Shown: positions 1-51,621, counted from the first letter of the stretch. The stretch is 64,000 nt of DNA from an uncultured virus (IMG/VR IMGVR_UViG_3300050343_000259) (IMGVR_UViG_3300050343_000259); one strand, 5' to 3'. The notes: a model not told the origin generated them from the sequence alone. Made by a program: numbers and translations.

Positions 1-1
1 A

Positions 2-19758: not shown

Positions 19759-21120
19759 TTACTCTTTTTCGATTGGGAAATCGTGCTTTTTGAATAATTT
19801 TCTTGCACCTTGCTCGGTATCAAGTTGATGCTGAACAAACTCCGGTGATGGTATAAATAGGTTTGTTCTTTGGAATGTACTTCCTACCATATCGAACTGA
19901 GGCATTTCCTCTACCTTTTCTTTTGAGAAGCAATCATAATTAATCATCATTTGCTTGATGTATATTAACTTTGATTTAATTTGGTCTTGCCATTTAGGAT
20001 TTTTTCCTGCATTTGAAGTAGATACCGCAGATACAGAATTTCCTGATTGATTAGAAAACTCTGATTTTGATGGTTTACCATCTTTTATCCATCTTAATTT
20101 TTCACTTAAATGCTTACTTCTTTTCATTAAGAAATCACAACCATACTTATCATATCCTTTTTCTAAACTATCTACGAAATCAGGAGTTATATAATCCTTG
20201 TTTAGTTTTGGTTGTTTTACTTTGGCAATCAAAGGAGTTGCTATATCTATATATACATAGTCTAGTATTAACCTTACCGTTGTTAAAGGAAGTAAATTAT
20301 ATTTTATTTTCGTAAAACCATCGAGTATGTACCCTTTTCCTTTTGGTGTAATAATGTAATTTTGAGATTGATATGGGTCAATAGTCGGTGTAAGTACCTT
20401 TTGATATACTTTACCTGTAGCTAATGTTCTATCAAATAAAAACGGCTCTAATATTTGTTCTTGATTTTCAGAAAATATTTGAAAATTCTTTATGTCGTAT
20501 GTCCTCTGAATTGTACTATACAAAAAGTCGTTGTAAGGGAAATTAGAAGTAGATATTACAGAAATATTGGGATTTGAAGGCAAAGTAGGTGCTGCGGCTG
20601 ATGCTGAAGGATATACTTGTATTGGTAGCCAAATTGCTCCTCCGGTTTGACCATTTAATAATATAGATTCTACCCCATAATTATACTGAGCAGTTGTAGC
20701 AATATTTTGTGCAGCTATATATGCAGGGTCTACAATAACTCTAATTACAAAACTTGTGGATTCAAGACCATAAGGTCCATCTACTGTCCATTGTCCTATT
20801 ACGGCAAATGGGTTAGCTGCATCATTTAAATATGTAACTAATTCAGCAGTAGATATATTTGATAATTTTGGGTCGGCAAGAGAACCAACTATAAATGTAC
20901 TACCATCTGCTCTAAAAATTCTTATTGACACAGAACCATTAGAGGCTACAAGTTTAGGATTCCACCAATCACCAAGAGTATATATAGGTGACCAATTAGA
21001 TTCAAAGTTCCAAACAGTTTCCGTGCTTGTATTGGGTGCACCTAAAGCTGAAGTTTCAAAAACTGAAAATTCTTGAACTTCTGTAGAATTATTTCTAAAA
21101 CTAAATACCGATGCATCCAT
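19759..21120 (-). CDS. Paralog of the candidate capsid protein, with insertion domain (putative minor capsid/turret protein)
   Basis: KVLTPTIDPYQSQ...YILDGFT matches KTLVPTIDPYQNQ...YKWDGFT of 53404-54153. Confidence 0.6.
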   Translation of the reverse strand: MDASVFSFRNNSTEVQEFSVFETSALGAPNTSTETVWNFESNWSPIYTLGDWWNPKLVASNGSVSIRIFRADGSTFIVGSLADPKLSNISTAELVTYLNDAANPFAVIGQWTVDGPYGLESTSFVIRVIVDPAYIAAQNIATTAQYNYGVESILLNGQTGGAIWLPIQVYPSASAAAPTLPSNPNISVISTSNFPYNDFLYSTIQRTYDIKNFQIFSENQEQILEPFLFDRTLATGKVYQKVLTPTIDPYQSQNYIITPKGKGYILDGFTKIKYNLLPLTTVRLILDYVYIDIATPLIAKVKQPKLNKDYITPDFVDSLEKGYDKYGCDFLMKRSKHLSEKLRWIKDGKPSKSEFSNQSGNSVSAVSTSNAGKNPKWQDQIKSKLIYIKQMMINYDCFSKEKVEEMPQFDMVGSTFQRTNLFIPSPEFVQHQLDTEQGARKLFKKHDFPIEKE

Positions 21121-21797
21121 TATTTGCTATTTTTTAATATTGTGAACCAATCTTGGGTATTATCATTTAAATATCCATTATTGTCTATACTTACAATTCG
21201 TTTTGTAACTCCATTACTGACATTACCTCCTATTACCTCTATATTTTTTCTTTTTCTATTAACATCTACAACTATATCACAATGTGATTTATAACTACTT
21301 TTTGTATCATAGTTTACACCCGTTTGTCTAGGATAACATATCAAATCTCCTTTTTCAGGTTTAACTTCGTGTACCTTATATCCTTTAAAGTCCGAATTAT
21401 TGTTTTGTTTTCTATTCTGAATAAAAGGTCTTATATAATTAGTATGTGCCGATGAATAAGGGAATTCGTTTCCTGCCCCACTCTTTTTCATTATGAATGA
21501 AATAAAAGCAGATGACCAAGGAGTTTTTCTATCACAACCATCATAATTTTTACCTGTTCCTTTTTTCCAATACTCTCCTACTCTATCTTTATATATAGGA
21601 GTACATTCAAACTCTCCTGATTCTTCTAATTTTCCTCCTACTATTACAGGGCTGCCCCATAGTTTCCACTCTTTATTAGCATTTGAAATAATAGCAGATT
21701 TGAATCCACTTAAAAGATACTTTTTAAACAAAATATATAGACCTGCCGATACGACAAGACCTATTCCAACCCCTATTGCTACCTGCCCCTTTTTCAC
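21120..21797 (-). CDS. DUF2272-like (CHAP/NlpC-related) protein with N-terminal TM
   Basis: PWSSAFISFIM...SAHTNYI...PEKGDLICY...SHCDIVV...IGGNVSN. Confidence 0.8.
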   Translation of the reverse strand: MKKGQVAIGVGIGLVVSAGLYILFKKYLLSGFKSAIISNANKEWKLWGSPVIVGGKLEESGEFECTPIYKDRVGEYWKKGTGKNYDGCDRKTPWSSAFISFIMKKSGAGNEFPYSSAHTNYIRPFIQNRKQNNNSDFKGYKVHEVKPEKGDLICYPRQTGVNYDTKSSYKSHCDIVVDVNRKRKNIEVIGGNVSNGVTKRIVSIDNNGYLNDNTQDWFTILKNSK

Positions 21798-22333: not shown

Positions 22334-22498
22334 TTATTTTTTTGTTTTTTTGTTTTTCTCTGTTTTTTGGGCTTCTGCTACTTTAGATTTTATTGCTCCC
22401 GATAATCCTGTGTTTCCTTGAAATCCTTGATTTCCTATATTGCCTGAATTACCTGACCTTAAACCTAATCCTTTATTTGCTTTACCCGATAATCCCAT
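22334..22498 (-). CDS. small basic protein with short Gly-X-Y run (54 aa)
   Basis: MGLSGKANKGLGLRSGNSGNIGNQGFQGNTGLSGAIKSK...KKTKK; TAATG coupling to upstream gene. Confidence 0.6.
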   Translation of the reverse strand: MGLSGKANKGLGLRSGNSGNIGNQGFQGNTGLSGAIKSKVAEAQKTEKNKKTKK

Positions 22499-24804
22499 TA
22501 TTTTCTTCCTAAAAATATGCCAAGAAGAATACCTGCTAAACCTCCTATTAACATTGAATTATCACCTTTTTTAGTAGAACTTTTATCCATCTTCTCTGCA
22601 TATTTATTGTCTTTGTCTACTTTTGCTTGAGTTTTAGCTTTATTTTTTTCATAATCAGATAAATCTTCCCATTCTTTATCAGAATATCCCCAATATTTTT
22701 TGGTATCAGAAACACTTAATTGACCTTTTTTCTTAACTTCTCCACCTTTTGCATATTTATTATCTTTTCTTCTGTAAAAATAATCTTGTGTATCTTTTAT
22801 GCCATAAGTATCAACATTATCAAACACACCTTTCTTTTCAAGTCGTTTTTCTATCATACTTGCACCTCTAAAAGTGTCTGAACTACCAACTACCTCTCCA
22901 TCATAACCACTATCTTTGTGAACAATGTATCTTTTGACTTTACCACCTTTTGCAAATCTCCCCATTTTCAATTCTCTTCCTTCTTTATAGTTATCACCAT
23001 TAAACCATTTAGATATTTTATCAATACCTTTTTGTAGTTTTTCTTTTAAATCTTCTATACTATCAAAAGTGAATTTGTCTTGTGTGTAATCTTCGTAATT
23101 TCCTGTTCTGTGATAAGGTGCTTCCATATTTACATTACCGGTAAGAACTATAGTATGCTTACCATCAATACCTCTGCTATTATCAGGATTATAGTAAAAT
23201 GCTTCTACTTCAAACATAATACTATCATCATCACTTCTTGAAAACTCATCTAAATCTTCTGCCTCATCCATATATCCTGCATCCTGTAAAGAAGAGTAAT
23301 CAACATTTTCAATACCTCCTAATTCTTTTACTATGTCAGGATATTCTTCTTCAAATCTTTCTTTACCATATTCATAATTTAGATTTTCTACTCTTTCTAA
23401 TTCAGCATCTAAAGTATTTGTAGGCAATGATTTTCCTGAGCCTGTTAGATAGTTTCCGTATGTGAAAAAACGGTATTCATAGCCTCCATCAGTAAAAGGT
23501 ATAAAGCCATCTCGACTCTTATATTCTACCTCTTCTCCTTTTATTTCTTGACCTTCATATTCTTGATTAGCATCTTCTAAAACATCTTCTAACTCATCTT
23601 TTAATACCTCAACTATTTTTTCTCTACTTATAGTTTCTCCACCCTCGGCAAACCCTTGAGGGAATTTAGAACTATATATTTCATCGTTATATCGAGATGC
23701 ATTATCAACTACTCTTACCCAAGTATTAGAATCTTCTATTTCTCTTGCTTTTGATATTGCTCTTTTTTTATTTGGTGCCTCATCATCTAAATACACTACA
23801 TCGTAGTTTTCATCAAAATCATAATCATCTTCGTTGTTGTAAACTCTAATAATATATTCTTTGTTTTCATCTAAATCTCCACCTTTTTCAAAACTTCTAA
23901 TCACGAAAATATCTCCATCATTAGACTTGTATTTCATTTTAGGAAAATACTTTTGTTTAGCTTCTTCAAAATTATCTCTATTCTGTCTTTCTGAATCAAC
24001 AAAAATCACTTTATAATTATCTCCTGCTAATACTTTTATTTCTTCTACATCATAATCATAATCTCCTCCGGACTGCCAATCATCTCCGAACTTTTGCTTT
24101 GCTAAATCAATTAAACCGTTTTCACTAACAAAATCATCTGTTGATGTGTAATTTCCACTTAAATCCTTTCCTAAACTGCCACCTTTTGCATATTTAGATA
24201 AATCGTATTCTTTTACTGTTCCTCCCTTTTTATAGTTTTGAAAATAATGTCCATCATATTCGTTATAATTGTTTATTGATAAATCTCTTCCCAAAGCCTC
24301 ATAGTCAAAATAATATTCAGGATTTGAAACACCTTCAATACCTCCTACATTATCAACATAATTTTCTCCTAATTCGTAATCCCCATCATATTGTCCTATA
24401 TATCTATCATCTACAAATTCCTCTAAATTATCAGGGCTAAAATCATTTGCTATGGATTGTAATACTTCAGCAGGAATTCCTTTTTCTTCTGATATTTTAT
24501 GAGTATCAATAATAATATCATAATCTGCCTCTCCCATATACTCACTATATAGGCTGCTATCAAAATTTTCGTAGTCGTGAATTGAGTGCTCAGTTTCTTC
24601 TCCGTTATGATACTTCTTGCTATATTCTTTCATAAGAGAAGCAATTTTATCGCTAACTTCTTCTCCACTATCATAATCAGTTAAATCAACCCACTCACCA
24701 ACTAACCTACCTTCATTATAAGATTTTAAGTCTGCAACATAAATTTTTGGAGTATCATCTTTAAATTCTCCTCCTTTATTATATTTATATTTTTTCATTT
24801 CCAT
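22498..24804 (-). CDS. Modular polyprotein: ArdA anti-restriction domain plus further modules separated by 7 [FY]xxGG linkers; C-terminal TM
   Basis: KIYVADLKSYNEGRLVGEWVDL...IHDYE...YFDYEALGRDL matches ArdA; ends MLIGGLAGILLGIFLGRK. Confidence 0.85.
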   Translation of the reverse strand: MEMKKYKYNKGGEFKDDTPKIYVADLKSYNEGRLVGEWVDLTDYDSGEEVSDKIASLMKEYSKKYHNGEETEHSIHDYENFDSSLYSEYMGEADYDIIIDTHKISEEKGIPAEVLQSIANDFSPDNLEEFVDDRYIGQYDGDYELGENYVDNVGGIEGVSNPEYYFDYEALGRDLSINNYNEYDGHYFQNYKKGGTVKEYDLSKYAKGGSLGKDLSGNYTSTDDFVSENGLIDLAKQKFGDDWQSGGDYDYDVEEIKVLAGDNYKVIFVDSERQNRDNFEEAKQKYFPKMKYKSNDGDIFVIRSFEKGGDLDENKEYIIRVYNNEDDYDFDENYDVVYLDDEAPNKKRAISKAREIEDSNTWVRVVDNASRYNDEIYSSKFPQGFAEGGETISREKIVEVLKDELEDVLEDANQEYEGQEIKGEEVEYKSRDGFIPFTDGGYEYRFFTYGNYLTGSGKSLPTNTLDAELERVENLNYEYGKERFEEEYPDIVKELGGIENVDYSSLQDAGYMDEAEDLDEFSRSDDDSIMFEVEAFYYNPDNSRGIDGKHTIVLTGNVNMEAPYHRTGNYEDYTQDKFTFDSIEDLKEKLQKGIDKISKWFNGDNYKEGRELKMGRFAKGGKVKRYIVHKDSGYDGEVVGSSDTFRGASMIEKRLEKKGVFDNVDTYGIKDTQDYFYRRKDNKYAKGGEVKKKGQLSVSDTKKYWGYSDKEWEDLSDYEKNKAKTQAKVDKDNKYAEKMDKSSTKKGDNSMLIGGLAGILLGIFLGRK

Positions 24805-24808
24805 ATTT

Positions 24809-25486
24809 TTATTTTATCAATAGTGCAGGTATAAGAATTCCTGTCCCTACACCTAGACCATACCAAAATCCTTTTTTATCATAGAATCTAGTATCATTTC
24901 TGATAACTATATTTTTCAAACTACTAACATTTACATAAGGATTTTCGTTTTTCACCAAGACTGAAGGTGTGGGAGCCTTGAAAAAACCGTTACTTTTCAT
25001 TCCCAAAGTAATAGTTTGCCGATTATACAAAGATAAAGAATCTATCCACATACCCTTTGTATTTATAGTTGAATATATAGAGTACCATTCATCTTCCACA
25101 CCGAACTTAGTAGGAAGTTTTAAAAAAGGTAATCCTGTAGCATCAAATGTAACTCTTTCAATAGTGTCTATAATGGGGACATATATACTATCTATCTTTG
25201 TAATAGTTCTAACTGTTACTTGAGATTTGACCTTTTTTAAATCCTCTATAACAAGCAAATTTAGAGCAATGGCATCCTTTTGTGAAAGGATTACCTGCTC
25301 TTGTTCTGCTATTTTTTCTCCGTTTTCATTTAATTTCTCAACAAAAACTTGTTCTCCATCTTTAAATTTAATGACCTGACTTTTATAATCTCTTAATCTT
25401 TCATTAGCACTAAAAAGTTGCCAAATAAGAATAAATAGAATTATAATACATATAGTTAGTGCATTATTTTTAAGTTTAGAAAACAT
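24809..25486 (-). CDS. N-terminal TM + coiled-coil protein, possible spanin-like lysis protein
   Basis: N-terminal TM, coiled coil, C-terminal GLGVGTG; next to a holin-like gene. Confidence 0.5.
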   Translation of the reverse strand: MFSKLKNNALTICIIILFILIWQLFSANERLRDYKSQVIKFKDGEQVFVEKLNENGEKIAEQEQVILSQKDAIALNLLVIEDLKKVKSQVTVRTITKIDSIYVPIIDTIERVTFDATGLPFLKLPTKFGVEDEWYSIYSTINTKGMWIDSLSLYNRQTITLGMKSNGFFKAPTPSVLVKNENPYVNVSSLKNIVIRNDTRFYDKKGFWYGLGVGTGILIPALLIK

Positions 25487-25494
25487 AATCCATT

Positions 25495-25689
25495 TTATTT
25501 CTTGTTTCCTATATTTGACAAGTGTTCTCCGGCATTACCTACTGCATAAATACCAAATATCCACATTACAAACTCAGACCAATTAGCAAAGTCTGCCTGT
25601 CCAATAAACAAGAAAACTGTTGCACATATAAACAATAAAATCGCAAAAAACATTTTACGACCACCTAAAAAACTAAATACTTTTTCCAT
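25495..25689 (-). CDS. small two-TM protein, holin-like
   Basis: FLGGRKMFFAILL..., two TMs, YAVGNAGEH. Confidence 0.6.
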   Translation of the reverse strand: MEKVFSFLGGRKMFFAILLFICATVFLFIGQADFANWSEFVMWIFGIYAVGNAGEHLSNIGNKK

Positions 25690-25701
25690 TTTTTCTTTTT
25701 T

Positions 25702-26373
25702 TTAATTCATAATTCTAACATCATATATATTCTGATTGGCGGCTATTATTCTTCTATTAACCTCATCCCAATTTATAATTTTAAATATATTTTTGATGTA
25801 TTTCGTTCTGTCTGCATCGTATTTCAAATAATATGCGTGTTCCCACACATCTACTCCTAATAAAGGATATGATTGATACTCAGGCATATATGGATTGTCT
25901 TGATAAGGGGTAGCTAGTATATTTGTACTGCCATCTCTATTCATTACCCACCATACCCATCCTGAGCCGAATCTTTTCTGCGATGCTTCAATAATAAATT
26001 CTTTAAATTGTCCGTAAGTACCAAAGTCTTGAATAATTTTAGCCAATGAAACACCGTGTGGTGGATTTGACTTTTTTGATGGATTAGGTTTAAGCATTTT
26101 CCAAAACATAGAATGATTTACATACCCTCCTCCATTATCTCTAATTTCAATTGGGTATCTATCTATGTTCTGCATTACTCTAATAACCGGGTCAGTAATA
26201 TCATATTTGTCTACTGCTGCGTTAAACTTTTTTAAATACCCTAAATAATGTTTATTGTAGTGTATTTGCATAGTTTCCTCATCAATATATGGCTCTAAAC
26301 CGTTATATTTATAAGGAAGCCTTACAGGAGAAAAATGTATTAAATCATAGTCATCATATTTATTCATTTTCAA
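25702..26373 (-). CDS. sodA: Fe/Mn superoxide dismutase (Mn-type signature)
   Basis: LPYKYNGLEPYI...HYNKH...NGGGYVNHSMFW...FGSGWVW...QDNP...DVWEHAYY; start may be the second Met (26367). Confidence 0.93.
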   Translation of the reverse strand: MKMNKYDDYDLIHFSPVRLPYKYNGLEPYIDEETMQIHYNKHYLGYLKKFNAAVDKYDITDPVIRVMQNIDRYPIEIRDNGGGYVNHSMFWKMLKPNPSKKSNPPHGVSLAKIIQDFGTYGQFKEFIIEASQKRFGSGWVWWVMNRDGSTNILATPYQDNPYMPEYQSYPLLGVDVWEHAYYLKYDADRTKYIKNIFKIINWDEVNRRIIAANQNIYDVRIMN

Positions 26374-26488
26374 ACTTTTTATTGCGTGTTAAGTTGCGTG
26401 TGGTAACATACGAACCTCTGAACAAAGCAAAAGAACCAATTACACACACGACTAACAAAGCACTTAGAACAACTTTATTATTCACTTA

Positions 26489-26587
26489 TTACTTACACTT
26501 ATAGATTAAGTAACCTAACATTCCAATGATAATTACATTGTGAACATTGTTACCACCTAAAAAATCTGCACTTTTAATATCAAACAT
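26489..26587 (-). CDS. micro membrane protein (32 aa)
   Basis: MFDIKSADFLGGNNVHNVIIIGMLGYLIYKCK. Confidence 0.5.
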   Translation of the reverse strand: MFDIKSADFLGGNNVHNVIIIGMLGYLIYKCK

Positions 26588-26796
26588 TTTTTTTAAATTT
26601 TTGGGTTAATACTCGTTTTATTTACTCTCCTGCAAGTTATATTTTTTAATGAGATTTTTAGCGATAGTTTGTAACTTCTTTTTATCGGCTCTTGCAGGTG
26701 GGAGATTGTCGTTAGTAATATTAAGTTTAGACTCTTGCATACTTGCAATTGTATATTTTAAATTCTTAACGATTTCTCTTGCCCTATTTACACTCA

Positions 26797-27288
26797 CTAC
26801 TTCTTCAATAATAAATAGGCACCTACACCTATTGCTATATATAAAATTAAATCATTATTATCTTTTTTACCTTCAACCGGCTCCGGATTTACTACAACTA
26901 CAGGAGTAGGTGTTACAGGAACTTCTGTAATAGGCTCAGTAACTACATTTTCTACAACGGCAGGACTGTATGGTAAAATAGGGTCAGTTAAAATAGGGTC
27001 AATAACAAAAGGTTCATCTTCTTTGGTTACTACCACAGGTGGACCTTTTACAATTGGTGTATTGCAAGGGTCTTTATCTAATGTCCATCCTTGAGGGCAA
27101 ACTGTTCCGGGGAACATATTAGAAACCCCATATCCTTTATCACACTTATTACATATTACAGTCTGAGTAACAGGGTCTACAGGTCTAGTTGGTACACTTG
27201 GCACCGAAACAGGTGGTCGATTAGTTGGTAATACAACCCTACTTCGACCTTGAGTAGCTGCTGCTTCAAACCATAATTCATTTGACAT
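26797..27288 (-). CDS. Pro/Val-rich tail-anchored protein with small Cys domain
   Basis: ICNKC...CPQGW...PC; C-terminal TM + KK. Confidence 0.75.
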   Translation of the reverse strand: MSNELWFEAAATQGRSRVVLPTNRPPVSVPSVPTRPVDPVTQTVICNKCDKGYGVSNMFPGTVCPQGWTLDKDPCNTPIVKGPPVVVTKEDEPFVIDPILTDPILPYSPAVVENVVTEPITEVPVTPTPVVVVNPEPVEGKKDNNDLILYIAIGVGAYLLLKK

Positions 27289-27481
27289 ATCTTTTTATTT
27301 TTTATTATTTAATCTAATCCTACTAATTCATCAATAGTTTTGCCATCGAAATATTTATCTTTTAAGAAATTATCATAAAAACCAACCAAGGCTACAATAG
27401 CTAATAAGTTAAAAGCTACTTGATATTCAAAAGGGGCTAAACCACCTTTTTTTAATTTATTGTATGACCTTTTATTCATTT

Positions 27482-27697
27482 TTAATCTTCATTTATATTC
27501 CAATCTTGCTGAGGCTTTACGGCAATTATTTTAGGTGAATTTTCTTCTTTTAATTCTTTTTTTACTAATTTTATTCTTAAAACATCTAAATATGTTTTTA
27601 CAATATAAGAAACTCCTATAGCAATTGCAATAGAACCTCCTACTGTTAGTATTTTTTGAAGATGACCTTCTTCTAAATAATCTTCCCACTTAGCCAT
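27482..27697 (-). CDS. small membrane protein
   Basis: Single TM. Confidence 0.7.
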   Translation of the reverse strand: MAKWEDYLEEGHLQKILTVGGSIAIAIGVSYIVKTYLDVLRIKLVKKELKEENSPKIIAVKPQQDWNINED

Positions 27698-27818
27698 TTA
27701 CAATGTGTTTTTAGTTATTGTAATATTTTTTGCTATATATTCTTGGTAAATCATATAAGCACCGTACCCTGCAAGGGCATATTTTATTATTGAAAACATA
27801 GTATATTATTTTTATTTG

Positions 27819-28271
27819 TTATGCTCCACAAGAACCACAAGCATTACTCATATTTGAAGTTTGCCAATCAGTACCTTGTAGGTTTCCTGATGCATTACTC
27901 ATATTAGTAGTTTGCCAATTTGTTCCTTGTAAATTTCCATTTGCACCATAGAATCCGGTTCTTCTTCTTCCCGGAATAGCTGCTAACCAATTGTTATCTG
28001 CACTAGGCAATGCTTTTCTATCTCTTGGTGGACCGTAAGGAATCATATATCCTCTTCTTGCTCCTGAAGCATTCTGAAACACACCACCTTCTTGCCACAT
28101 AGTTTCTCTGTTTCTACCTGACTGTTGCCAATTTGTTCCTGTAAAACTTGAAGTTGGTTCAGCACCTTCAATTGGTGGAACTGTACTTGTTTTTGGTTTA
28201 GAGAAATGCTCGTAAGCTGCATATGCTCCAAATCCTGCTAGTCCGTAAAGACCAATTTTCATTAAATCCAT
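27819..28271 (-). CDS. N-terminal TM protein with GTNWQ/NASG repeats
   Basis: Internal repeats GNLQGT[ND]WQT[TS]NMSNA; block shared with 50390-50779. Confidence 0.8.
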   Translation of the reverse strand: MDLMKIGLYGLAGFGAYAAYEHFSKPKTSTVPPIEGAEPTSSFTGTNWQQSGRNRETMWQEGGVFQNASGARRGYMIPYGPPRDRKALPSADNNWLAAIPGRRRTGFYGANGNLQGTNWQTTNMSNASGNLQGTDWQTSNMSNACGSCGA

Positions 28272-28290
28272 TTTTTCTTTTTTTTATTGA

Positions 28291-28704
28291 TTAATAATTA
28301 TTTAATTTTTGTTTGATAGGTATTTCTAAAACTTCGTTACCTTTAAATGTATATTCATTTTCAGGGTACATCATTTGCGAGTTACCTAAGTTGTCTATTC
28401 CCCAAACAGGAAAATCCACATCTTTCATTGTGATTCTTCCATTTGGAATGAGATTATAAGGTCTGTTTAAATCCTTACTATCTCTTTTATAACCTGTAAC
28501 AGAATATATGTCACCATTAAATCCTAATGATGCGGCTCCTCCAATTGGTAAGCCTCCTATTACTCCACTACTAGGTACAGTCACAACATATGGTTGTGAT
28601 TGTCTATTAGAATCAAAAAAGTCATCACCTTCGTTAAACCACGAGTTATTCGTGTCTAACAAATTAGATACATCAGCATAGCCATCTTTAATAATACTAT
28701 CCAT
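28291..28704 (-). CDS. phage hypothetical protein (ITMK...FPV domain)
   Basis: GYKRDSKD...NLIPNGRITMKDVDFPVWGID...MYPENEYTFKG..VLEIP, a module I recall from large phage proteins. Confidence 0.7.
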   Translation of the reverse strand: MDSIIKDGYADVSNLLDTNNSWFNEGDDFFDSNRQSQPYVVTVPSSGVIGGLPIGGAASLGFNGDIYSVTGYKRDSKDLNRPYNLIPNGRITMKDVDFPVWGIDNLGNSQMMYPENEYTFKGNEVLEIPIKQKLNNY

Positions 28705-28870
28705 TTAATCCTTTTTTGTCTAATTCTTCTTTTACTATTTTCTTTACTCCCGGTCTAAAAACATATATTTCTGCCCACATTTCAAGAGCAACAAAGGCAG
28801 CTACTGCTACTGTAACCGTACCCCAATTTATTTTATCACCGAATAACTTCATATTACCTTTTATATATTA

Positions 28871-29239
28871 TTAAAACAAAAATCTTGAGCCTGTAGGAAT
28901 ATCATATACAAAATCTTCACCTTCACAATAAAATGCTCCTTTTTTGCCATTTTTATCTAGCCAAAATTTTGATACAGTACAAGGTGTTTTACCATTAATA
29001 AGTCCTTTTGTTCCAATATGTAATCTTTCAGTTGCTTCATATTTATCATCACGAATTAAATCAATTGCATTATTATTTTTTGCATCACTAATGTTGATTG
29101 AATTATTAAATGTTGAAGCTAAATTATCCTGCCCTAAAGTTGTTTCAGTTAATTCATTTTTATCTTTTTTAATAAATAAAAAGTAAGCTGCTACTGCCGC
29201 TACTGATACACCTATAATAATTTTTGTTTTCTTATCCAT
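28871..29239 (-). CDS. N-terminal TM protein
   Basis: MDKKTKIIIGVSVAAVAAYFLF. Confidence 0.75.
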   Translation of the reverse strand: MDKKTKIIIGVSVAAVAAYFLFIKKDKNELTETTLGQDNLASTFNNSINISDAKNNNAIDLIRDDKYEATERLHIGTKGLINGKTPCTVSKFWLDKNGKKGAFYCEGEDFVYDIPTGSRFLF

Positions 29240-29252
29240 TTTATTATTTTAA

Positions 29253-29396
29253 TTACTTCTTTTTATATATCATCATACCTGTCTTTGTTTTTGATGCCAC
29301 ATAGGTACTTCCGTTATAACTAAATGATTTTTTTCCGGCTTTTCTTGCCTTTTCTTTTGCTTTCATATAAGCATTCATTGCTCTTTTCTTTGCCAT
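29253..29396 (-). CDS. small basic protein (47 aa), putative DNA-binding
   Basis: MAKKRAMNAYMKAKEKARKAGKKSFSYNGSTYVASKTKTGMMIYKKK. Confidence 0.7.
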   Translation of the reverse strand: MAKKRAMNAYMKAKEKARKAGKKSFSYNGSTYVASKTKTGMMIYKKK

Positions 29397-29398
29397 AA

Positions 29399-29563
29399 TT
29401 ATTTATTTTTAAATTTATTTTTATATATGTAAAATGCTAAACCTGCCACAAGAATTGCACCTCCTATATACATTAGATTCTTATTTCTTTTTTCCGTTTT
29501 TACTTCTTGAGTACGAGCATCAATAACTGCCTGTTCTTCAATAGTATGTTGTTTAGCCGCCAT
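29399..29563 (-). CDS. small tail-anchored protein (54 aa)
   Basis: MAAKQHTIEE...NLMYIGGAILVAGLAFYIYKNKFKNK. Confidence 0.7.
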   Translation of the reverse strand: MAAKQHTIEEQAVIDARTQEVKTEKRNKNLMYIGGAILVAGLAFYIYKNKFKNK

Positions 29564-29566
29564 AAT

Positions 29567-29833
29567 TTATTTTTTAAAAATTCCCTTACTGTAGGCATAA
29601 TATACACCTACTCCAATAATTGCTATCCAAGCTAAGTTTGGTAAGCCCATAAAACCTGCTTTTTTTGGCTTTACCTCTGCCGGTTTAGTTCCCACATTAT
29701 CTCCGGGTCCTATTACTTCTGCTTCAGCTAATAATTCTTCTTTTACTTCGGCATCATCTTTTCCTGCTCCGTATAAAGCATCATTTACCTTTTTTATATA
29801 TTCCGGGTCTGTTCCTTCTGCGAATCTTGACAT
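29567..29833 (-). CDS. tail-anchored protein, paralog of 29954-30217
   Basis: KKAGFMGLPNLAWIAIIGVGVYYAYSKGIFKK. Confidence 0.8.
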   Translation of the reverse strand: MSRFAEGTDPEYIKKVNDALYGAGKDDAEVKEELLAEAEVIGPGDNVGTKPAEVKPKKAGFMGLPNLAWIAIIGVGVYYAYSKGIFKK

Positions 29834-29839
29834 AATTTT

Positions 29840-29947
29840 TTATTTTTTTCGGGTATGACTTTTTACTGTCTTACCTTTTCGTTTATAACTCTTGATTATT
29901 GTGCAAGATTTACTTCCACTTTTTTTTACTGCTTTTTTCTTTGCCAT
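29840..29947 (-). CDS. small basic protein (35 aa)
   Basis: MAKKKAVKKSGSKSCTIIKSYKRKGKTVKSHTRKK. Confidence 0.65.
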   Translation of the reverse strand: MAKKKAVKKSGSKSCTIIKSYKRKGKTVKSHTRKK

Positions 29948-29953
29948 AATTTA

Positions 29954-30217
29954 TTATTTTTTAAACACTCCTTTTGTGTAAGCATAATATACACCTGCAC
30001 CAATAATTGCAACCCAAGCTAAAGTTGGCAATCCCATAAATCCTGCTTTTTTTGTTTTACCATCTACAACTTCTGTGGTAGTAGATTCTGCTGCTACTTC
30101 AGTTGTAGGTTCAGGTGTTGCAATTTTAACATTATCACTAGGTGCTTCTTTAAATTGTTCTGCCAATATTTCTTTTCTTTCTGCTACGAATTTTGGGTCT
30201 ATTTTTTTTGATGCCAT
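29954..30217 (-). CDS. tail-anchored protein, paralog of 29567-29833
   Basis: KKAGFMGLPTLAWVAIIGAGVYYAYTKGVFKK. Confidence 0.8.
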   Translation of the reverse strand: MASKKIDPKFVAERKEILAEQFKEAPSDNVKIATPEPTTEVAAESTTTEVVDGKTKKAGFMGLPTLAWVAIIGAGVYYAYTKGVFKK

Positions 30218-30235
30218 TTTTTATTAATTAATTAT

Positions 30236-30799
30236 TTATTTATTTCTGTTTCTTAACATATATGCTATAGCTAGTGCTCCTGCTACTGCTACTCCAAAAA
30301 TTAGGAGGTTATTAGTTGTTTTAGCTTTTTCTTCCGCCATATCTCTTGACAGTATCATATCGGTTTGTGCTTTACCTAATTCTATAGCAATTTGTTTTCT
30401 TGCGTTTAACTCTGCTAGTTCTCTATAGAATCTTTTATCTTCCTTGTCATACTGCTCTTGCCTTCTTGCCATATCACGACCAAAAGCTGCGTTTTTAGCA
30501 CCTATAAATATACCTGCTACTGATTGTGCAACTGCTGAAACTGCCGTTGCAATACCTACTAAAAGTGTAGCTGCTATATTAGAGAATCTTCCCTCCTCTA
30601 CCTTGCTTTGAAAAATTATTATTCTAGCAATAAAATCTTCATCTAGCATATGATATGCTACTGCTTTATTTACTTCATCTACAGGAGTATTAACAGGCAA
30701 CTCAGCATAACCATTCTCATTAAGCCATTGAATTACCAAAACTTTATGGTCAAGAATGAATCCGGCTAAACCCTTAAATGCTAAATTATTTGTTTTCAT
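30236..30799 (-). CDS. two-hydrophobic-segment membrane protein (family with 30799, 52070, 52770)
   Basis: Helical N-domain, FSNIA, hydrophobic segment, coiled coil, C-terminal TM. Confidence 0.8.
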   Translation of the reverse strand: MKTNNLAFKGLAGFILDHKVLVIQWLNENGYAELPVNTPVDEVNKAVAYHMLDEDFIARIIIFQSKVEEGRFSNIAATLLVGIATAVSAVAQSVAGIFIGAKNAAFGRDMARRQEQYDKEDKRFYRELAELNARKQIAIELGKAQTDMILSRDMAEEKAKTTNNLLIFGVAVAGALAIAYMLRNRNK

Positions 30800-31356
30800 T
30801 ATTTCATTATTTTTATCGCTATATATACAACTACTCCACCTGCTAATGCTATATATAATGAATTCATTCTCGTATTTTCTCTATTTTTTTGTATCAAATT
30901 TTCTTCTTGTTGTAGATAATCTGATTGTGCTAAAAGAAATTGTTTTTGCATTTCTTTTCTTTGTAAAAATGCTATTTCATCTCTTGTTTCTTTATTTAAA
31001 TACCTAGACCTAAAACCTTCTCTAAATATTTCTTCACGCATTTTTTTGTTTCTGCGTATATCTTGTTGTACCGCAATTCCTGCCGTTACAACTAATAAAC
31101 TTCCTATTATCCAAGCAGCCGTTGCAGTTAGAGTAAAAATTGCATTTTTATATTCATTTTCTTCAGTAGCTATTTCCATCAATCCGTTTTGTAACTCTTT
31201 ATTGGTTGAGTTATCAATAACTACTTCATTTACACTTGCAATAGGTGCATTTAAAGGCAGCGATGCTATCCTTAACCTATTGATTAGGGATATTACATCA
31301 TTTTTATTTTGCAGTAAAAAAACTGCTAAATTAGATATTGCCTTTTCTTTGTTCAT
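30799..31356 (-). CDS. two-hydrophobic-segment membrane protein, paralog of 30236-30799
   Basis: LAVFLLQNKNDVI...LPLNAPIASVN; YKNAI; C-terminal TM. Confidence 0.8.
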   Translation of the reverse strand: MNKEKAISNLAVFLLQNKNDVISLINRLRIASLPLNAPIASVNEVVIDNSTNKELQNGLMEIATEENEYKNAIFTLTATAAWIIGSLLVVTAGIAVQQDIRRNKKMREEIFREGFRSRYLNKETRDEIAFLQRKEMQKQFLLAQSDYLQQEENLIQKNRENTRMNSLYIALAGGVVVYIAIKIMK

Positions 31357-31357
31357 T

Positions 31358-31855
31358 TTATACTGTTGCAGGTTTCTTTTTTAATGCTACATATGCTACC
31401 ACTCCTATAACTAATGCCCCAACTCCTAAAGCAACATAGGTTAATGTTTTATCTTCTGTTTTTCTTGCAGCACTTTTCAAATTTGCTTCTTGAAACATTT
31501 TTTCAATATTAGCATCAAATTCTGCTGCTTGTTCATCTAATTTTTTCTGAGAACAGTCTAGTTCATCCCATTTATTTTTAAAGTCTAATCTTCTATTTTC
31601 TAAGGCTCTTGAATTTCTTGTGATTACTCTGTCTTTAGCACCACTATTAGCATTTTTAGTCAAATCCTTATCAATAACACCAATAGTATCATCAATGGTA
31701 TCACAATCCATCTCATCTTCTAACTTGTACTTATCGTTATATCTGTCTACTGCCTTGTTATATCTTTCTTTTTCTGCTTTTTTAGGTGCAAAAAAATCCT
31801 TGAACCAAGTTCCTCCTATAAATCCGGGGTGATTAAACCATAATTCTTCTTGCAT
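31358..31855 (-). CDS. tail-anchored helical protein, NHPGF family
   Basis: WFNHPGFIGGTWFKD; Cys pair; C-terminal TM. Confidence 0.8.
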   Translation of the reverse strand: MQEELWFNHPGFIGGTWFKDFFAPKKAEKERYNKAVDRYNDKYKLEDEMDCDTIDDTIGVIDKDLTKNANSGAKDRVITRNSRALENRRLDFKNKWDELDCSQKKLDEQAAEFDANIEKMFQEANLKSAARKTEDKTLTYVALGVGALVIGVVAYVALKKKPATV

Positions 31856-31859
31856 AATT

Positions 31860-32081
31860 TTATTTTTTTAATTTACTATATATTATTATTGCTACTATCG
31901 CAAGAGATATTCCTCCTACTAATTTTAAAACTGCACTTCCAATACTATTATCTTCTTCTTTAAATTCATCTATGCTTCCAACTGCATTAGAGTAATTTTC
32001 TTGTTTACATTTACCTCCGCACTTACATTCACCTCCATTTTGGCAAGGGTGATACTCTTTATTTTTGCATCCACAACTCAT
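31860..32081 (-). CDS. small Cys-rich (metallothionein-like) tail-anchored protein
   Basis: MSCGC...CQNGGECKCGGKC, YSNAVG, TM. Confidence 0.7.
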   Translation of the reverse strand: MSCGCKNKEYHPCQNGGECKCGGKCKQENYSNAVGSIDEFKEEDNSIGSAVLKLVGGISLAIVAIIIYSKLKK

Positions 32082-34348
32082 TACTTTCTTCCTAAAAATA
32101 TACCAAGAAGAATACCTGCAATTCCTCCTATCAGCATTGTGTTATGCTCTTCATTTCCTTTTTTCTTTACCTCTCCACCTTTTGCATAACCTCTTTCAGC
32201 TTTTATTTCTTCAATAGCATCTTGATATGTTTCATCCGTAGGAGTTCCATCTTCATTATATCCATCAAGTTCAGGATGTTTTTCAAGCCATTCTATTATT
32301 TCTTGATGTGATATTTCTCCACCTTTTGCAAAATCTTCTTTATCAAGTTCTAATGCCTCTAATAATTCTTCTTTAGTGTTTATGGGTGTCGGTGTATTCA
32401 TAGAATTTCCTAACCATATTTCATAAAGTTCTTCTCTTGATGGGTTGTTTTCAAGAACTTCCTCTATGTGCGAAACATCAATACCATCATTATTCATATC
32501 ATCTATATACATACGAACTATCTCCTCACTATTTACATTATCCCAATCTCCCTCGCCCTTATCTTGTAAATAATCATAAAATTCTCCAAAAGACATATCC
32601 TTAATAGAGCCACCTTTAGCAAAGTCCAATTTAGGTGTCCACTCTACTACTTTATATTGAATAGAACTACTCATTCTTTGCAGTTTATTTTTTTCGTCTT
32701 GAGCATCTTTGTATGATAGATATTTTTTGCCACCCGTTAAAAACTTCTCATCTTTCCATTTTGGAACTCCTAAATCATATTTACTTTTTTCTTGAATTTT
32801 GTAAATCTTTCCTTGTGTTTTACCACCTTTAGCAAATCTGTTTTTTTCTTCTACATATTTTAAACCTTGATTAGATAATTTATATTCTCCTTTATTTATT
32901 AATCTTGCCCAATTTTCAGCTTCTTTTTTTGTTTTATAAGAAGGGTTTGAGTATGTACTTCCATATTTTTTTAAGTAGTATTTTCCGTTAGTTCCATAAA
33001 CAGATACTTCCCCACCTTTTGCAAAAGTTTCTAAATTTTTAACCATTGCTTCAACTCTTCTTCCATTTGTTGCTTCAACTATTGCCACACCCCCATCATC
33101 TCCATCTGCTCTTAATTTTATTATTTCTTCTACTTTACCACTTTGTCCTTTTCCCATACCACTTATTGAATGTGGGAAATTGTCTTTTGTTGCTCTAACC
33201 ACATCTCCTACTTCAATTTTACCACCTTTAGCATAAGATTGAACACCATCTTCATCTACTTCCCAAAGATAACCTTGTTGACTCATAATTTGAGATTTAT
33301 ATGCACCATCTTCAATACTTGAAAGTGCAATTTCTAATGCCTCACTATATGTTTTTACTTCTTTATCTAAACTTGGCTTATTGCTATTGTATCTTGCTTT
33401 ACTTTTCCAAACCTCAACTGAAAAAGGACTATCTTTTTTAGGCTCTACTTCGCCACCTTTTGCGAACTCTAATTTCTCTTTTTTATAGACTTCATATGGA
33501 AATAAAAATTGAGCAGAATACAACTTCATTTCACCTTTTTTCCAAAGTTCTATTTCTTTTTCAGTAGGTGCAGAAAACTCATCCCAATCACTACCTTTTT
33601 CGTGCTTTACAAGAGCACTTGTTTGAATAGTATCTTCATCAACATAAAAATCCTCTTCTTTCATATCTGCGTATGAAACAAAATCATTTAAAGTTTCAAA
33701 TAAATCTTTTTTATTAGTAAACTTAGTTTTATATGGAAAATCATTTTCACCTAAGTAATATGAATGAAATTGGTCTTGCTCTCCCTCTTCATAAGAATCT
33801 TCGTAAAAAGTAACATCAGCACCCTTTATTTGGTATGTTTTTCCAACTTCCCCACCTTTTGCATAATCTTCGTGTTCTATTCCAAAATTATCATAATCCT
33901 CAATATCGTTTTTACTATCTATTAAGCCCTCTGATTCTTCGCTAATGTTTATTCCATAAATCTCTATTTTATCCCAATTTTTCTCTGCAAACGACTTGCT
34001 TACTTCTTGAAATTTATATCCATCAGAGAATGTTATAAAACCGCCTTTAGCAAATTTTGCTTTTTGTTTCTTAGCATCTTGAACGGTTTTGTATATGCCT
34101 CCTAAATCTTTCTTGATGTCTTTAATTTTGTTCTCTCTGTCCTTAATAGATTTCTTTTCTCTATCAATGCCACTTTCTAAATTATTAATTTGATTTTCGG
34201 AACTTGTAATATCTTTACGAATGCTTTTTATCTCATCTCTACCTTCATTGATTTCTTTATCGCCTTTTTTAGCGACATTACCCATAGCTTTAGCAAGTTC
34301 AATTTGACCTCCTCTTTCGTAACTATTATTTCTATTTCCTCTTTTCAT
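32081..34348 (-). CDS. Modular polyprotein with 10 [FY]xxGG linkers and C-terminal TM
   Basis: YERGG plus nine F/YAKGG; ends MLIGGIAGILLGIFLGRK. Confidence 0.85.
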   Translation of the reverse strand: MKRGNRNNSYERGGQIELAKAMGNVAKKGDKEINEGRDEIKSIRKDITSSENQINNLESGIDREKKSIKDRENKIKDIKKDLGGIYKTVQDAKKQKAKFAKGGFITFSDGYKFQEVSKSFAEKNWDKIEIYGINISEESEGLIDSKNDIEDYDNFGIEHEDYAKGGEVGKTYQIKGADVTFYEDSYEEGEQDQFHSYYLGENDFPYKTKFTNKKDLFETLNDFVSYADMKEEDFYVDEDTIQTSALVKHEKGSDWDEFSAPTEKEIELWKKGEMKLYSAQFLFPYEVYKKEKLEFAKGGEVEPKKDSPFSVEVWKSKARYNSNKPSLDKEVKTYSEALEIALSSIEDGAYKSQIMSQQGYLWEVDEDGVQSYAKGGKIEVGDVVRATKDNFPHSISGMGKGQSGKVEEIIKLRADGDDGGVAIVEATNGRRVEAMVKNLETFAKGGEVSVYGTNGKYYLKKYGSTYSNPSYKTKKEAENWARLINKGEYKLSNQGLKYVEEKNRFAKGGKTQGKIYKIQEKSKYDLGVPKWKDEKFLTGGKKYLSYKDAQDEKNKLQRMSSSIQYKVVEWTPKLDFAKGGSIKDMSFGEFYDYLQDKGEGDWDNVNSEEIVRMYIDDMNNDGIDVSHIEEVLENNPSREELYEIWLGNSMNTPTPINTKEELLEALELDKEDFAKGGEISHQEIIEWLEKHPELDGYNEDGTPTDETYQDAIEEIKAERGYAKGGEVKKKGNEEHNTMLIGGIAGILLGIFLGRK

Positions 34349-34350
34349 AA

Positions 34351-35388
34351 TTATCTTCCTATAAAAAATGCACCAAGTAAAATACCTGCTATCCCTCCTA
34401 CAAGTAAAGTTTGATTATTATTATCTTCAGTATTATCAACTTTTTTTGCTTCTACTTTTTCAATTTTATCATCACATTTATCTTTAGTGATAGTTGCTTT
34501 TCTTAAAGCACCTTTTTCCTTCTTTAGTTTAGCAATTTCTTTGTCTTTTTCTCTTCTTAGCTTAACATATCTATCTCTGTCAATTTTACCTTCAACAGAG
34601 CCTCCACGAGCCATTTTTATTTTCTCTATGCTTCTAACTCCATTTGCAAGTTGCTCTCCTTTGTTAAAATCTTCAATAGATTTATAATTAGTTTCAAAAC
34701 CTTCATTATGCTCATTAATAAATTCCATAGCTTCTGATTTTGTTAGATATTCAGTAGCATCTTCATCATCAGATTCACGATATACATATCCACCTTTAGC
34801 CATTTTTCTTTTGCCTTTATCCATTGTAGATACATCAGCATACTTTCTTCTACCCATAGATTTTTCCATTCCTGCACTTTCTCTCATTCTACTGTCTAAA
34901 GATTGAGATTTTTTTCCTCTGTTTCTTTCTCCTATGCTTTCTCTATCTCTGTCATCATAACCCTGAGTTTTTCCACCTTCCATAAACATTCTATCGCCTT
35001 TGTCCATAGTGTCTACACTTGAATATGCTCTACGACCTAGATTTTTATTAGCTGCTTTGCTTTCATCTCTTCGGTCTTTTAATGTTTGTGTATAATTGCT
35101 TTCTCTTCCAAGTCTAGTTCCTAAATCTTCATTTAACTTGTCGTTATACCCTTGTGGTTTATCGGTTTCTCCTCCTTTAGCCATCTTTTTCTTATTTGCT
35201 ATTTGTTGCATATTTAAAGCAAATTGTGCTCTTTCACGAGTTCTTTCTGAAAAGTCAGTTGGATTATCTTTTACTTTTTTAGCAAAATCTTGAACGGACA
35301 TACCTGCATCAGTAGCTTGTTTAGTAAACGCACCAACAGTTCCTTTTTTTTCCATTTCTTTATCTACATTTTGAATCCAATCTGCCAT
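34351..35388 (-). CDS. Modular polyprotein with 4 [MF]xxGG linkers, internal duplication and C-terminal TM
   Basis: MAKGG x2, FMEGG, MARGG; duplicated QGY[ND]D...ES...GRR.Y..V.TMDKG; ends LLVGGIAGILLGAFFIGR. Confidence 0.85.
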   Translation of the reverse strand: MADWIQNVDKEMEKKGTVGAFTKQATDAGMSVQDFAKKVKDNPTDFSERTRERAQFALNMQQIANKKKMAKGGETDKPQGYNDKLNEDLGTRLGRESNYTQTLKDRRDESKAANKNLGRRAYSSVDTMDKGDRMFMEGGKTQGYDDRDRESIGERNRGKKSQSLDSRMRESAGMEKSMGRRKYADVSTMDKGKRKMAKGGYVYRESDDEDATEYLTKSEAMEFINEHNEGFETNYKSIEDFNKGEQLANGVRSIEKIKMARGGSVEGKIDRDRYVKLRREKDKEIAKLKKEKGALRKATITKDKCDDKIEKVEAKKVDNTEDNNNQTLLVGGIAGILLGAFFIGR

Positions 35389-43008: not shown

Positions 43009-43009
43009 A

Positions 43010-50790: not shown

Positions 50791-51621
50791 TTATTTACTT
50801 GCTCTCAAATTAGGTGTACTATTCTGAGTGCAAAATTTATTTCTTTCAAAATTTGTTATAAACTGATTTAAAATGTCAAATCTTTCTTTATTTTGAGGTG
50901 TTGGAGTGTCCTTAAATGTTGTAAGGAAACTTTGATAAGCCTCTATTCTTGGATAACCAAGAGCCAAATAAATTAATAATCCATTCAAATCTGCTTCTGT
51001 TTCATCTTCCATATTCTCATTCAAATAAAAATGAGAAAACTCGTGTAATAGAATTGCCATTCTCATTGGAACAGTAAACTTTTTATAGTGTGCTTTGCTT
51101 ACTTGTATAATTCCTTTTGACTGACTAATTCTTGCAGGGGTTTGTATTACCAAACCTCTTTTTGTTCTAATATCATCAAAGTAATCTATTCTAAAATTAC
51201 CCTCATCTGAGATATATGTGCTTCCGTTTGGAAACTTTCCTGCACTTAATATTCCTGCGTTGTCTGAAAATTGTTGAGCAAAATTTGCAAAATCTCTTAT
51301 TTTTGGATTACTCCAATCAACACAATCCATTTTTCTTTCTAATGGTCTAGCATCTATTTTTACAACTTTAAATGATGCATCTTGACCCTTTTTCAAATTA
51401 CCGTTAGCTTTATTATATACACTTATAAGTGCTTCATAAGGAGATAAAGGCATTCTAACGAAGAATCTTTGCTTACCATCAATAGTTGCATATCTATTAG
51501 TATAATCAGTATTAGGCTTATTAATATCCTTAACTACTATCTGAATTTTTTGAGGACTATTTGTTACGACCTCTATCATAATAGTTAACGATTTTTGCTT
51601 TGTTTTAAATAAAATATTCAT
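50791..51621 (-). CDS. Zincin-like metalloprotease (HExxH)
   Basis: MAILLHEFSHFYLN...ETEADLNGL: HExxH plus downstream E-x-x-A-D ligand helix. Confidence 0.7.
   Translation of the reverse strand: MNILFKTKQKSLTIMIEVVTNSPQKIQIVVKDINKPNTDYTNRYATIDGKQRFFVRMPLSPYEALISVYNKANGNLKKGQDASFKVVKIDARPLERKMDCVDWSNPKIRDFANFAQQFSDNAGILSAGKFPNGSTYISDEGNFRIDYFDDIRTKRGLVIQTPARISQSKGIIQVSKAHYKKFTVPMRMAILLHEFSHFYLNENMEDETEADLNGLLIYLALGYPRIEAYQSFLTTFKDTPTPQNKERFDILNQFITNFERNKFCTQNSTPNLRASK

Follow-up and report, generated by a model that had tools for sequence, protein, structure and literature searches.

The genome of an uncultured marine bacterial virus (IMG/VR IMGVR_UViG_3300050343_000259), analysed here as a stretch of 64,000 nucleotides that is called the window, contains three minus-strand genes whose products look like strings of small unrelated proteins and are named here polyproteins A, B and C. 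The question raised by this locus is why a virus would join such modules into long chains, set the same short Gly-Gly peptide between them and close the chains with a hydrophobic tail. A sequence-only reading of the locus had proposed cassette polyproteins that are loaded on the viral membrane and cut at Gly-Gly to release small anti-defence effectors. The three products are polyvalent proteins in the sense in which the main text of Iyer et al. 2017 (PMC5512222) uses the term, and the explanation favoured here for the whole, to which a probability of about one half is given, is that they are motif-processed, membrane-anchored and hypervariable polyvalent chains.

A repeated peptide between unrelated modules

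The window has a guanine plus cytosine (GC) content of about 30% and from 7.2 kb onward its genes are tightly packed on the minus strand. Polyprotein A (22498..24804, minus strand, 768 residues) begins with a short leader ending in YNKGG, followed by a module homologous to the anti-restriction protein ArdA, seven further pieces and a C-terminal tail anchor. Polyprotein B (32081..34348, minus strand, 755 residues) consists of a 14-residue leader ending in YERGG, an 89-residue coiled-coil head, nine variable modules and a tail anchor placed directly after a YAKGG. Polyprotein C (34351..35388, minus strand, 345 residues) has a 73-residue head, two repeated modules of about 61-66 residues, one more module and the anchor, and its four motifs are of the type M-A-K/R-G-G. 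With the tight pattern [FYM]x[KRE]GG the three open reading frames (ORFs) contain 7, 10 and 4 copies, which reproduces exactly the genes and copy numbers first proposed and clearly exceeds the means of 0.22, 0.20 and 0.085 (maxima 3, 3 and 2) obtained from 5000 residue shuffles of each protein. The wording in which the motif had originally been given, [FYM]xxGG, is too loose for those numbers, as taken literally it finds 9, 12 and 4 copies, the extras being FTDGG, FLTGG and the MLIGG of two anchors. Among the minus-strand ORFs of at least 50 residues, 21 of the 23 matches to the tight pattern fall in A, B and C. The motifs split these proteins into 10, 12 and 5 pieces, with 12-183 residues between motifs.

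The statistics of the motif were obtained from 71 marine-metagenome proteins (436-1285 residues) found by a search with B, together with A and C, which makes 73 proteins. These contain 657 unique Gly-Gly contexts, 505 of them with F, Y or M three residues before the Gly-Gly, and the consensus over these 505 instances is a peptide of seven residues, [YFM]-A-K-G-G-x-[VITL] (Y/F/M 44/39/17%, A 69%, K 66%, V/I/T/L together 85%). The information is confined to positions -3 to +2, with none elsewhere between -8 and +8, and the flanks are hydrophilic, unconserved and rich in K, D, E, N and G; the motif is therefore read as a short exposed linear motif, the pattern being that expected of one rather than of an element of a fold. 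Its codons vary synonymously much as elsewhere in these genes (Ala GCA 8, GCT 7; second Gly GGA 10, GGC 6, GGT 5, GGG 2) and it is kept in relatives of 41-43% GC, which means that selection acts on the peptide and not on the DNA. A conserved recombination signal at the DNA level as the cause of the motif conservation is ruled out by the same synonymous variation.

Relatives of the virus were found as a 51-kb IMG/VR genome (G001), as contigs of metagenome-assembled genomes (MAGs), namely G002 (132 kb, from the bin of a Sediminibacterium MAG), G003 (148 kb), G005 and G006, and as two stretches of a Parvicellaceae MAG (G004). The residue at position -1 of the motif depends on the lineage: the window and G001 have K, G002 has D, G005 and G006 have H or K, and G003 is mixed. 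In 30 of the 73 proteins a motif ends inside the first 20 residues, in 29 of the 32 anchored ones a motif lies at most 25 residues before the anchor, and two chains of G002 terminate 2-3 residues past a motif. As the motif is thus present where no linker is needed, it should be a functional site or a mark of the cassettes and not a spacer. Among the papers listed for the peptide and its variants none is on phages, and no title or abstract listed on polyvalent-protein cleavage or on membrane-containing marine jelly-roll viruses describes this motif or this virus group.

Cutting the 73 proteins at the motif gave 714 pieces, 618 of them of at least 25 residues, and these fall into 258 clusters, including 179 singletons. 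Clusters recur at constant length at different positions of different proteins, as for example modules of 133, 97 and 47 residues. BLAST alignments end no more than 6 residues away from a motif in 40% of the cases, against 14% for random points. Moreover, none of 12 Pfam domain stretches in 10 proteins of the family contains a motif, and most domain edges have one 1-9 residues away. The proposal that the motifs divide unrelated modules is borne out by these domain stretches and by the distribution of the pieces of A, B and C over different clusters.

The best defined module is that of ArdA in polyprotein A (24235..24768, minus strand, residues 13-190), with one motif ending at residue 12 and the next starting at residue 191. 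It matches Pfam ArdA over residues 21-187 (E 4.4e-23), the PHROG anti-restriction protein (E 2e-25) and the ArdA structure 2w82 of the PDB (E 1.4e-7), in which residues 18-178 correspond to chain residues 3-150 of 165. Judged by these sequence matches, one module of A is a full-length ArdA. Pfam domains were recognised in only 9 of 62 relatives and comprise ArdA (three), ART-PolyVal, Zeta_toxin/AAA_33, RadC, DUF2958, DUF5824, DUF5661, DUF4240 and DUF7447. The anti-defence content that had been suggested for the chains holds for the single ArdA module, and the ART-PolyVal, Zeta-toxin and RadC modules of the relatives are only suggestive of it. No peptidase family was found inside A, B and C (Pfam, E<=1), nor a peptidase domain within the 62 homologues besides one RadC/JAB (Pfam, E<=1e-4). 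Small genes that stand alone in cultured phages match single modules; an example is gp134 of Cellulophaga phage phi17:2, whose neighbourhood is a block of small genes next to a DNA methylase. Polyprotein B had no match in 50,697 phage records and the match of C to cultured phages was limited to a 65-residue piece; PDB sequence searches with B and C gave nothing meaningful, and the Protein Atlas nothing usable for the 133-residue module of B.

The same borders are those at which the chains change. Seventeen metagenome loci keep the gene order of the window. The closer loci among them have neighbouring genes with 95-100% identity to the window, yet length and content vary for the genes in the places of A, B and C; in locus L005 the B-type protein has 611 residues and 53% identity and its neighbours are 97-100% identical. 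A 70-residue module of B (33011..33220, minus strand, residues 377-446) is present or absent among near-identical strains, being missing in proteins P0002-P0006 and in locus L003, which are otherwise 99% identical. The deletion junction in L003 falls within 8 nt (AAAGGTGG) common to both flanking motif copies. The L001 allele of C has one extra 74-residue module directly after the first MAKGG, the remainder being identical. In general, single-module insertions and deletions between otherwise 99-100% identical strains begin and end at motifs.

The stretch was found nearly unchanged in 20 public runs from 15 studies, five of the runs being labelled viral metagenome. In four public runs the 70-residue module of B forms a separate contig piece of 262 nt, and its depth is below that of its flanks in two of three runs (6.3 against 15-18 and 19.4 against 31-34). 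Eight of 13 internal contig break nodes touch motif codons (15-nt intervals), where 2.5 would be expected by random placement (P ~0.0007); these 13 come from the pieces listed across the four runs, with 40 further pieces not among them. The check first suggested, whether homologues swap modules at Gly-Gly, thus comes out positive: relatives gain, lose and exchange modules, the breaks fall at the motif, and the order and content of the modules vary. The further suggestion that the linker DNA promotes recombination has one junction inside 8 shared nucleotides in its favour, but the motif codons vary and the conservation is at the protein level.

Anchored ends and a proposed release site

In A, B and C the C-terminus is a hydrophobic tail with a Gly at every fourth residue, that is a glycine zipper, followed by one or two basic residues. 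The anchor of A (22501..22557, minus strand) reads ...SMLIGGLAGILLGIFLGRK, with Gly at i, i+4, i+8 and i+12, that of B (32084..32140, minus strand) ...TMLIGGIAGILLGIFLGRK and that of C (34354..34410, minus strand) ...TLLVGGIAGILLGAFFIGR; translation gives the three nearly identical anchors as they had been quoted. The string YAKGGEVKKKG, also said to precede the anchor, abuts it directly in B but lies about 70 residues upstream of it in A. The same type of anchor is present in 32 of the 73 proteins, and the B-type proteins have in common the 14-residue leader ending in YERGG, the 89-residue coiled-coil head and the anchor. Unanchored relatives carry a conserved basic C-terminal helix instead. 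A second short element, (G/K)RR(A/K)YS(S/D)V.TMDKG, was seen in C-type proteins (twice in C) and also in P0025, L018 9020-13864 and the chains of G005 and G006. In distant unanchored chains it is found close to the C-terminus, where it often precedes a basic tail ...LAKEIRKEGEKWQDAVKRA..., and it may be part of an address label.

A C-terminus such as ...LIGGIAGILLGIFLGRK, with Gly-Gly, then a membrane helix and then basic residues, has a superficial resemblance to the GlyGly-CTERM signal. The signal handled by rhombosortase consists of these three elements at the C-terminus plus an N-terminal signal peptide for export. The N-termini here are hydrophilic (MKRGNRNNSYERGG..., MEMKKYKYNKGG...) and a scan for hydrophobic stretches found no signal peptide in them, by which GlyGly-CTERM/rhombosortase sorting is ruled out.

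A hydrophobic helix was detected in 36 of 100 ORFs, concentrated at 21-55 kb, where most ORFs have one. In 16 cases it is at the C-terminus, a number given by a strict scan that missed A and B themselves. Small proteins whose single membrane helix is C-terminal, with KK or K/R at the very end, are unusually frequent in the region of 21-55 kb, and this type of ending may direct them all to the viral membrane as an address signal. The same block holds membrane-anchored cell-wall enzymes (CHAP/DUF2272, PG_binding). The position of the chain genes in this membrane-protein-rich block, adjoining jelly-roll and ATPase genes, favours the explanation of the chains given above.

According to that explanation each chain would be a string of independent small proteins held between constant ends, the N-terminal leader or head and the C-terminal glycine-zipper anchor. 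The seven-residue motif would be a protease recognition site, at which the modules are separated from one another and released from the anchor, and the best candidate for the protease would be the virus's own M48-like zincin. Counter-defence and takeover proteins would be made late and gathered at the membrane where virions assemble, so that a ready-made set could become available at or before the next infection. In addition, the motif would set the cassette boundaries where modules are gained, lost and exchanged. These parts differ in strength. The repeated motif, the build of the chains from modules, their hypervariability where motifs form the borders, the presence of an ArdA module and the tail anchors are observations. 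Loading of the chains on the virion is judged an even matter. Cutting appears the most likely function of the motif, at a confidence just short of even, ahead of docking of the uncut chain and then of a passive joint. The zincin as the processing enzyme is rather doubtful.

Cleavage, docking or a joint

The candidate protease is a stand-alone zincin (50791..51621, minus strand, 276 residues) in which a beta-sandwich at the N-terminus precedes an HExxH domain. Its active-site string is HEFSH, and H193, E194, H197, E207 and D211 are invariant in 62 sequences. The AlphaFold2 model (predicted local distance difference test, pLDDT, 94.2; predicted template modelling score 0.91) shows the beta-sandwich and a helical/beta domain. 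For residues ~106-262 all structural matches listed are of the M48 type: BepA (Z 8.5 over 120 residues, root-mean-square deviation 4.1), 3c37 (Z 6.8), Ste24 (Z 6.5) and ZMPSTE24 (Z 6.3), values near 8 lying in the grey zone of the tool. With these enzymes the candidate has in common the HExxH and a downstream Glu, but it differs from them by the absence of a membrane segment, by the added N-terminal beta-sandwich and by the lack of a match to Pfam Peptidase_M48 or to a PDB sequence. Foldseek returned no match of the model at E<=0.001. The M48 enzymes BepA, Ste24/ZMPSTE24 and HtpX work at membranes. The zincin has 591 representative homologues, and its gene was found in G001 and in all five MAG records searched. 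We infer a link between the zincin and the motif; a complex prediction with zinc and residues 280-320 of B scored 0.01 and is not evidence either way.

Several points weigh against this account. Motif arrays occur in six of eight elements, and the zincin is also present in the two G004 stretches, where arrays were not found in 80 kb around each; the enzyme thus belongs to the core genes and its presence does not depend on the motif. No M48 enzyme is known to cut after Gly-Gly. Cutting at the motif has no observed product, and a function was recognised for 1 of about 25 modules of the window, with the scarcity of Pfam domains in the relatives already described. The lineage-specific residue at -1 (K, D, H or mixed) could also be expected of a linker that is passively inherited, and a motif 2-3 residues from a C-terminus fits a remnant of a cassette or a docking peptide better than a cut site. 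The topology presents a further difficulty, as a tail-anchored chain predicted to face the cytoplasm would leave the delivery of ArdA into the next host unexplained. In assembly of the PRD1 type the cytoplasmic face ends between capsid and membrane, outside the vesicle that holds the DNA.

The alternative that survives best, although it is considered unlikely, is that the chains are never cut and that the motif is a docking peptide in many copies for a viral or host partner, the chain acting as beads on a string at the membrane. The partner could be a capsid or membrane protein, a chaperone or a translocation machinery that loads the chain, holds it unfolded or threads it. The two hydrophobic positions five residues apart around the Gly-Gly resemble those of peptides that are bound while extended, avidity would rise with the number of copies, and motifs at the extreme N- and C-termini suit a binding tag better than a cutting site. 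The alternative conserved basic tail of the unanchored relatives also suggests that the end is an address label and that the chain travels whole. Uncut transfer has precedents in the virion RNA polymerase of phage N4 and in plasmid ArdC and TraC1, according to the main text of Iyer et al. (PMC5512222). However, no partner was identified for docking, and the motif just before the anchor in 29 of the 32 anchored proteins looks like a release site. ArdA, moreover, acts as a DNA-mimicking dimer and might be hindered by tethering among other modules on a membrane.

Still less probable is a motif that serves as a mere structural joint, a tight Gly-Gly turn with a hydrophobic cap, inherited with the cassettes without any recognition function and kept since the cassettes spread by recombination between motif-coding repeats. 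The deletion junction inside 8 nt common to two motif copies and the clustering of natural-population break nodes at motif codons are what such a joint would give; so is a -1 residue uniform within a genome and different between lineages, as concerted evolution would produce, and the terminal motif copy in G002 resembles a cassette remnant. Passive linkers normally vary, however, whereas here three to five positions hold over the 505 instances and in genomes of 32-43% GC. Free synonymous variation leaves at most 8-14 nt of shared DNA and no DNA conservation beyond the peptide, and the motif is present even 10-14 residues from the N-terminus, where no joint would be required.

Cutting after Gly-Gly by an adenain/Ulp1-type cysteine protease, as in adenovirus, African swine fever virus and polinton-like viruses, was the form of processing first proposed and is highly improbable: a Gly-Gly with an upstream hydrophobic residue resembles those consensus sites, and the virus may belong to the lineage of jelly-roll proteins and HerA/FtsK ATPases where such proteases occur, but the hydrophobic residue of the motif, three before the Gly-Gly, is at P5 while the adenain consensus (M/L/I)-x-G-G|x has it at P4, and no adenain/Ulp1-type or other protease of the CE clan was found in 67 proteins of the window (E<=0.001; 51 rechecked at E<=0.05), which covers 64 kb of this virus's 99-kb contig with about 35 kb lying outside, and no Peptidase_C5, C48, C57 or similar in the 92 proteins of the 132-kb relative G002. 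The latter has a weak LRAT/PPPDE papain-fold match, below the PPPDE cut-off. A papain-fold hydrolase of the CHAP/DUF2272 type (21120..21797, minus strand; Pfam DUF2272 E 2.6e-29, CHAP E 4.3e-5) is encoded two genes downstream of A and has an N-terminal transmembrane segment at residues 6-24; it is most likely a cell-wall entry enzyme and is the weaker alternative candidate for the protease.

Several known systems can be compared with motif-processed chains. Phage T4 packs ready-made anti-restriction and ADP-ribosylating proteins, its internal proteins and Alt, which are delivered with the DNA and have a short N-terminal capsid-targeting leader followed by a site for the prohead protease gp21, by which the leader is removed. 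The T4 proteins differ in being encoded by separate genes, with a single site (Leu/Ile-x-Glu) and targeting to a protein core, whereas here there are many units per chain, another motif and a membrane anchor. DdrB and DarA of phage P1 are anti-restriction cargo packed into particles and cut before or during packing, as given in the main text of Iyer et al. (PMC5512222). These proteins and the N4 virion RNA polymerase differ from the present chains in belonging to tailed phages and, as described there, in having single cuts without a repeated motif or a membrane.

The closest likeness is to the polyvalent proteins themselves, which in the main text of the same paper have many unrelated conflict domains in one polypeptide, as here with ArdA and in relatives with ART-PolyVal, RadC, Zeta-toxin-like and DUF2958 modules, and highly mosaic, rapidly changing architectures; zincin peptidases are predicted there to process them (PMC5512222). 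By the same source, an in-chain peptidase is frequent there, though not universal, while the chains described here have none and the candidate zincin is a separate gene, in a seemingly tailless virus of another kind. What would be new in comparison are the fixed seven-residue motif at every border, the C-terminal membrane anchor, the mostly very small modules (~40-180 residues) of families that are not known, the stand-alone candidate protease and the kind of virus. The words 'linker', 'glycine' and 'transmembrane' do not occur in that main text, and its supplementary files could mention such linkers.

The motif gives the exact borders of small proteins that viruses value enough to pre-make. 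The 258 clusters from 73 proteins, nearly all without a known family, can be used as a list of counter-defence candidates for the screening of defence systems. If the motif is cut, the protease and its site would be a new pair usable as a tool, and polyprotein processing would be a delivery strategy in bacterial viruses, the counterpart to that of eukaryotic viruses. In its widest form the proposal would be a large (50-150 kb) tailless membrane-containing group that infects marine and freshwater bacteria, probably Bacteroidota, with early counter-defence polyproteins cut by the M48-like zincin at [YFM]-A-K-G-G-x-[VIT] to release dozens of effectors. This wide form is speculative and rather improbable; if true, the motif would be a natural barcode that marks the borders of hundreds of anti-defence proteins not known so far. 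Finally, frozen neighbours beside shuffling cassettes within single seawater samples provide a natural system in which the arms race could be watched in real time.

The virus and its other genes

A protein of 249 residues (53404..54153, minus strand), conserved and with 870 homologues, is the candidate capsid protein and is jelly-roll-like. Its AlphaFold2 model is a single eight-strand sandwich (pLDDT 69) with Z scores of 4.6-6.4 to proteins of PBCV-1, FLiP, PR772 (P31), Faustovirus and PRD1, found among unrelated sandwiches, and Foldseek gave no match at E<=0.001. A 453-residue protein (19759-21120, minus strand) has in common with it the stretch (L/V)(T/V)PTIDPYQ(S/N)Q. The two may be jelly-roll capsid paralogues, as in shells made of two single jelly-roll proteins. 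The candidate genome-packaging ATPase, of the P-loop HerA/FtsK type (56438..57256, minus strand, 272 residues), has 835 homologues. In its family 32 of 41 members match Pfam DUF87/HerA (best E 2.5e-7); the ATPase of the window itself matches at E 9e-4, below the curated cut-off. PDB sequence searches with the ATPase and with the zincin profile gave nothing meaningful, and the Protein Atlas nothing usable for a 371-residue protein at 54943-56058.

None of the cultured phages searched resembles the virus, and the window at 22-46 kb gave no DNA match among them. In IMG/VR, scans with B, the B-type alignment, the ATPase and P0067 gave no matches, and the scan with P0043 gave one contig. In G002 no portal, HK97-type capsid, tail tube or sheath was found (Pfam, 92 proteins; PHROGs, 53), and the sole terminase match was a weak one on the small ATPase. 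The virus thus seems to belong to a group not yet described, with genomes of 50-150 kb, that is probably tailless and membrane-containing. Its surroundings point to an abundant group that is missed by the markers of tailed phages, given the recovery from 20 runs of 15 studies and the 835-870 homologues of each of the core genes.

The two G004 stretches (L054-L061) are in two 2.25-Mb Flavobacteriales MAG records and carry distant copies of the ATPase and its 360-residue neighbour, as well as of the CHAP enzyme, the zincin and the jelly-roll protein. Neighbouring proteins of 1266-2549 residues are without the motif. These records are a hint that relatives are integrated or were co-assembled, and that the hosts are Bacteroidota. 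The contig of G002 (G002:C9, L035-L041, 132,486 bp) has a long sugar-modification block with several glycosyltransferases, a sulfotransferase, an APS kinase, an aminotransferase and an acetyltransferase. It also encodes a 747-residue protein of DUF285 repeats and a GDSL lipase. An ART-PolyVal gene stands alone there, next to an HNH endonuclease, and a MoxR/AAA_5 ATPase is part of a conserved five-gene set that adjoins its polyproteins.

The first 6000 nucleotides of the window (1-6000) have about 50% GC, against 30% elsewhere, and a strong excess of A and G on the plus strand. They include an open-ended ORF of 1467 residues (2-4405, plus strand) that consists of collagen triple-helix repeats (Pfam Collagen, E 1e-211). 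No other large gene is on the plus strand, and the product of this one may be a fibre of the particle. A set of five paralogues was also found on the minus strand (37037-37486, 37505-38170, 41578-43065, 43801-44259 and 49210-49533), with no family match for any of them and with the common ending GF(D/G)G..(F/Q)M.F.(D/N)(Y/D). Several of the five have repeated Cys-rich units C.D..A.NY.P.A..DDGSC.Y, and the endings are conserved in relatives. Inside the block of membrane proteins there is a complete gene for an Fe/Mn superoxide dismutase (25702-26373, minus strand), the product of which is 87-100% identical in all the relatives that cover its place.

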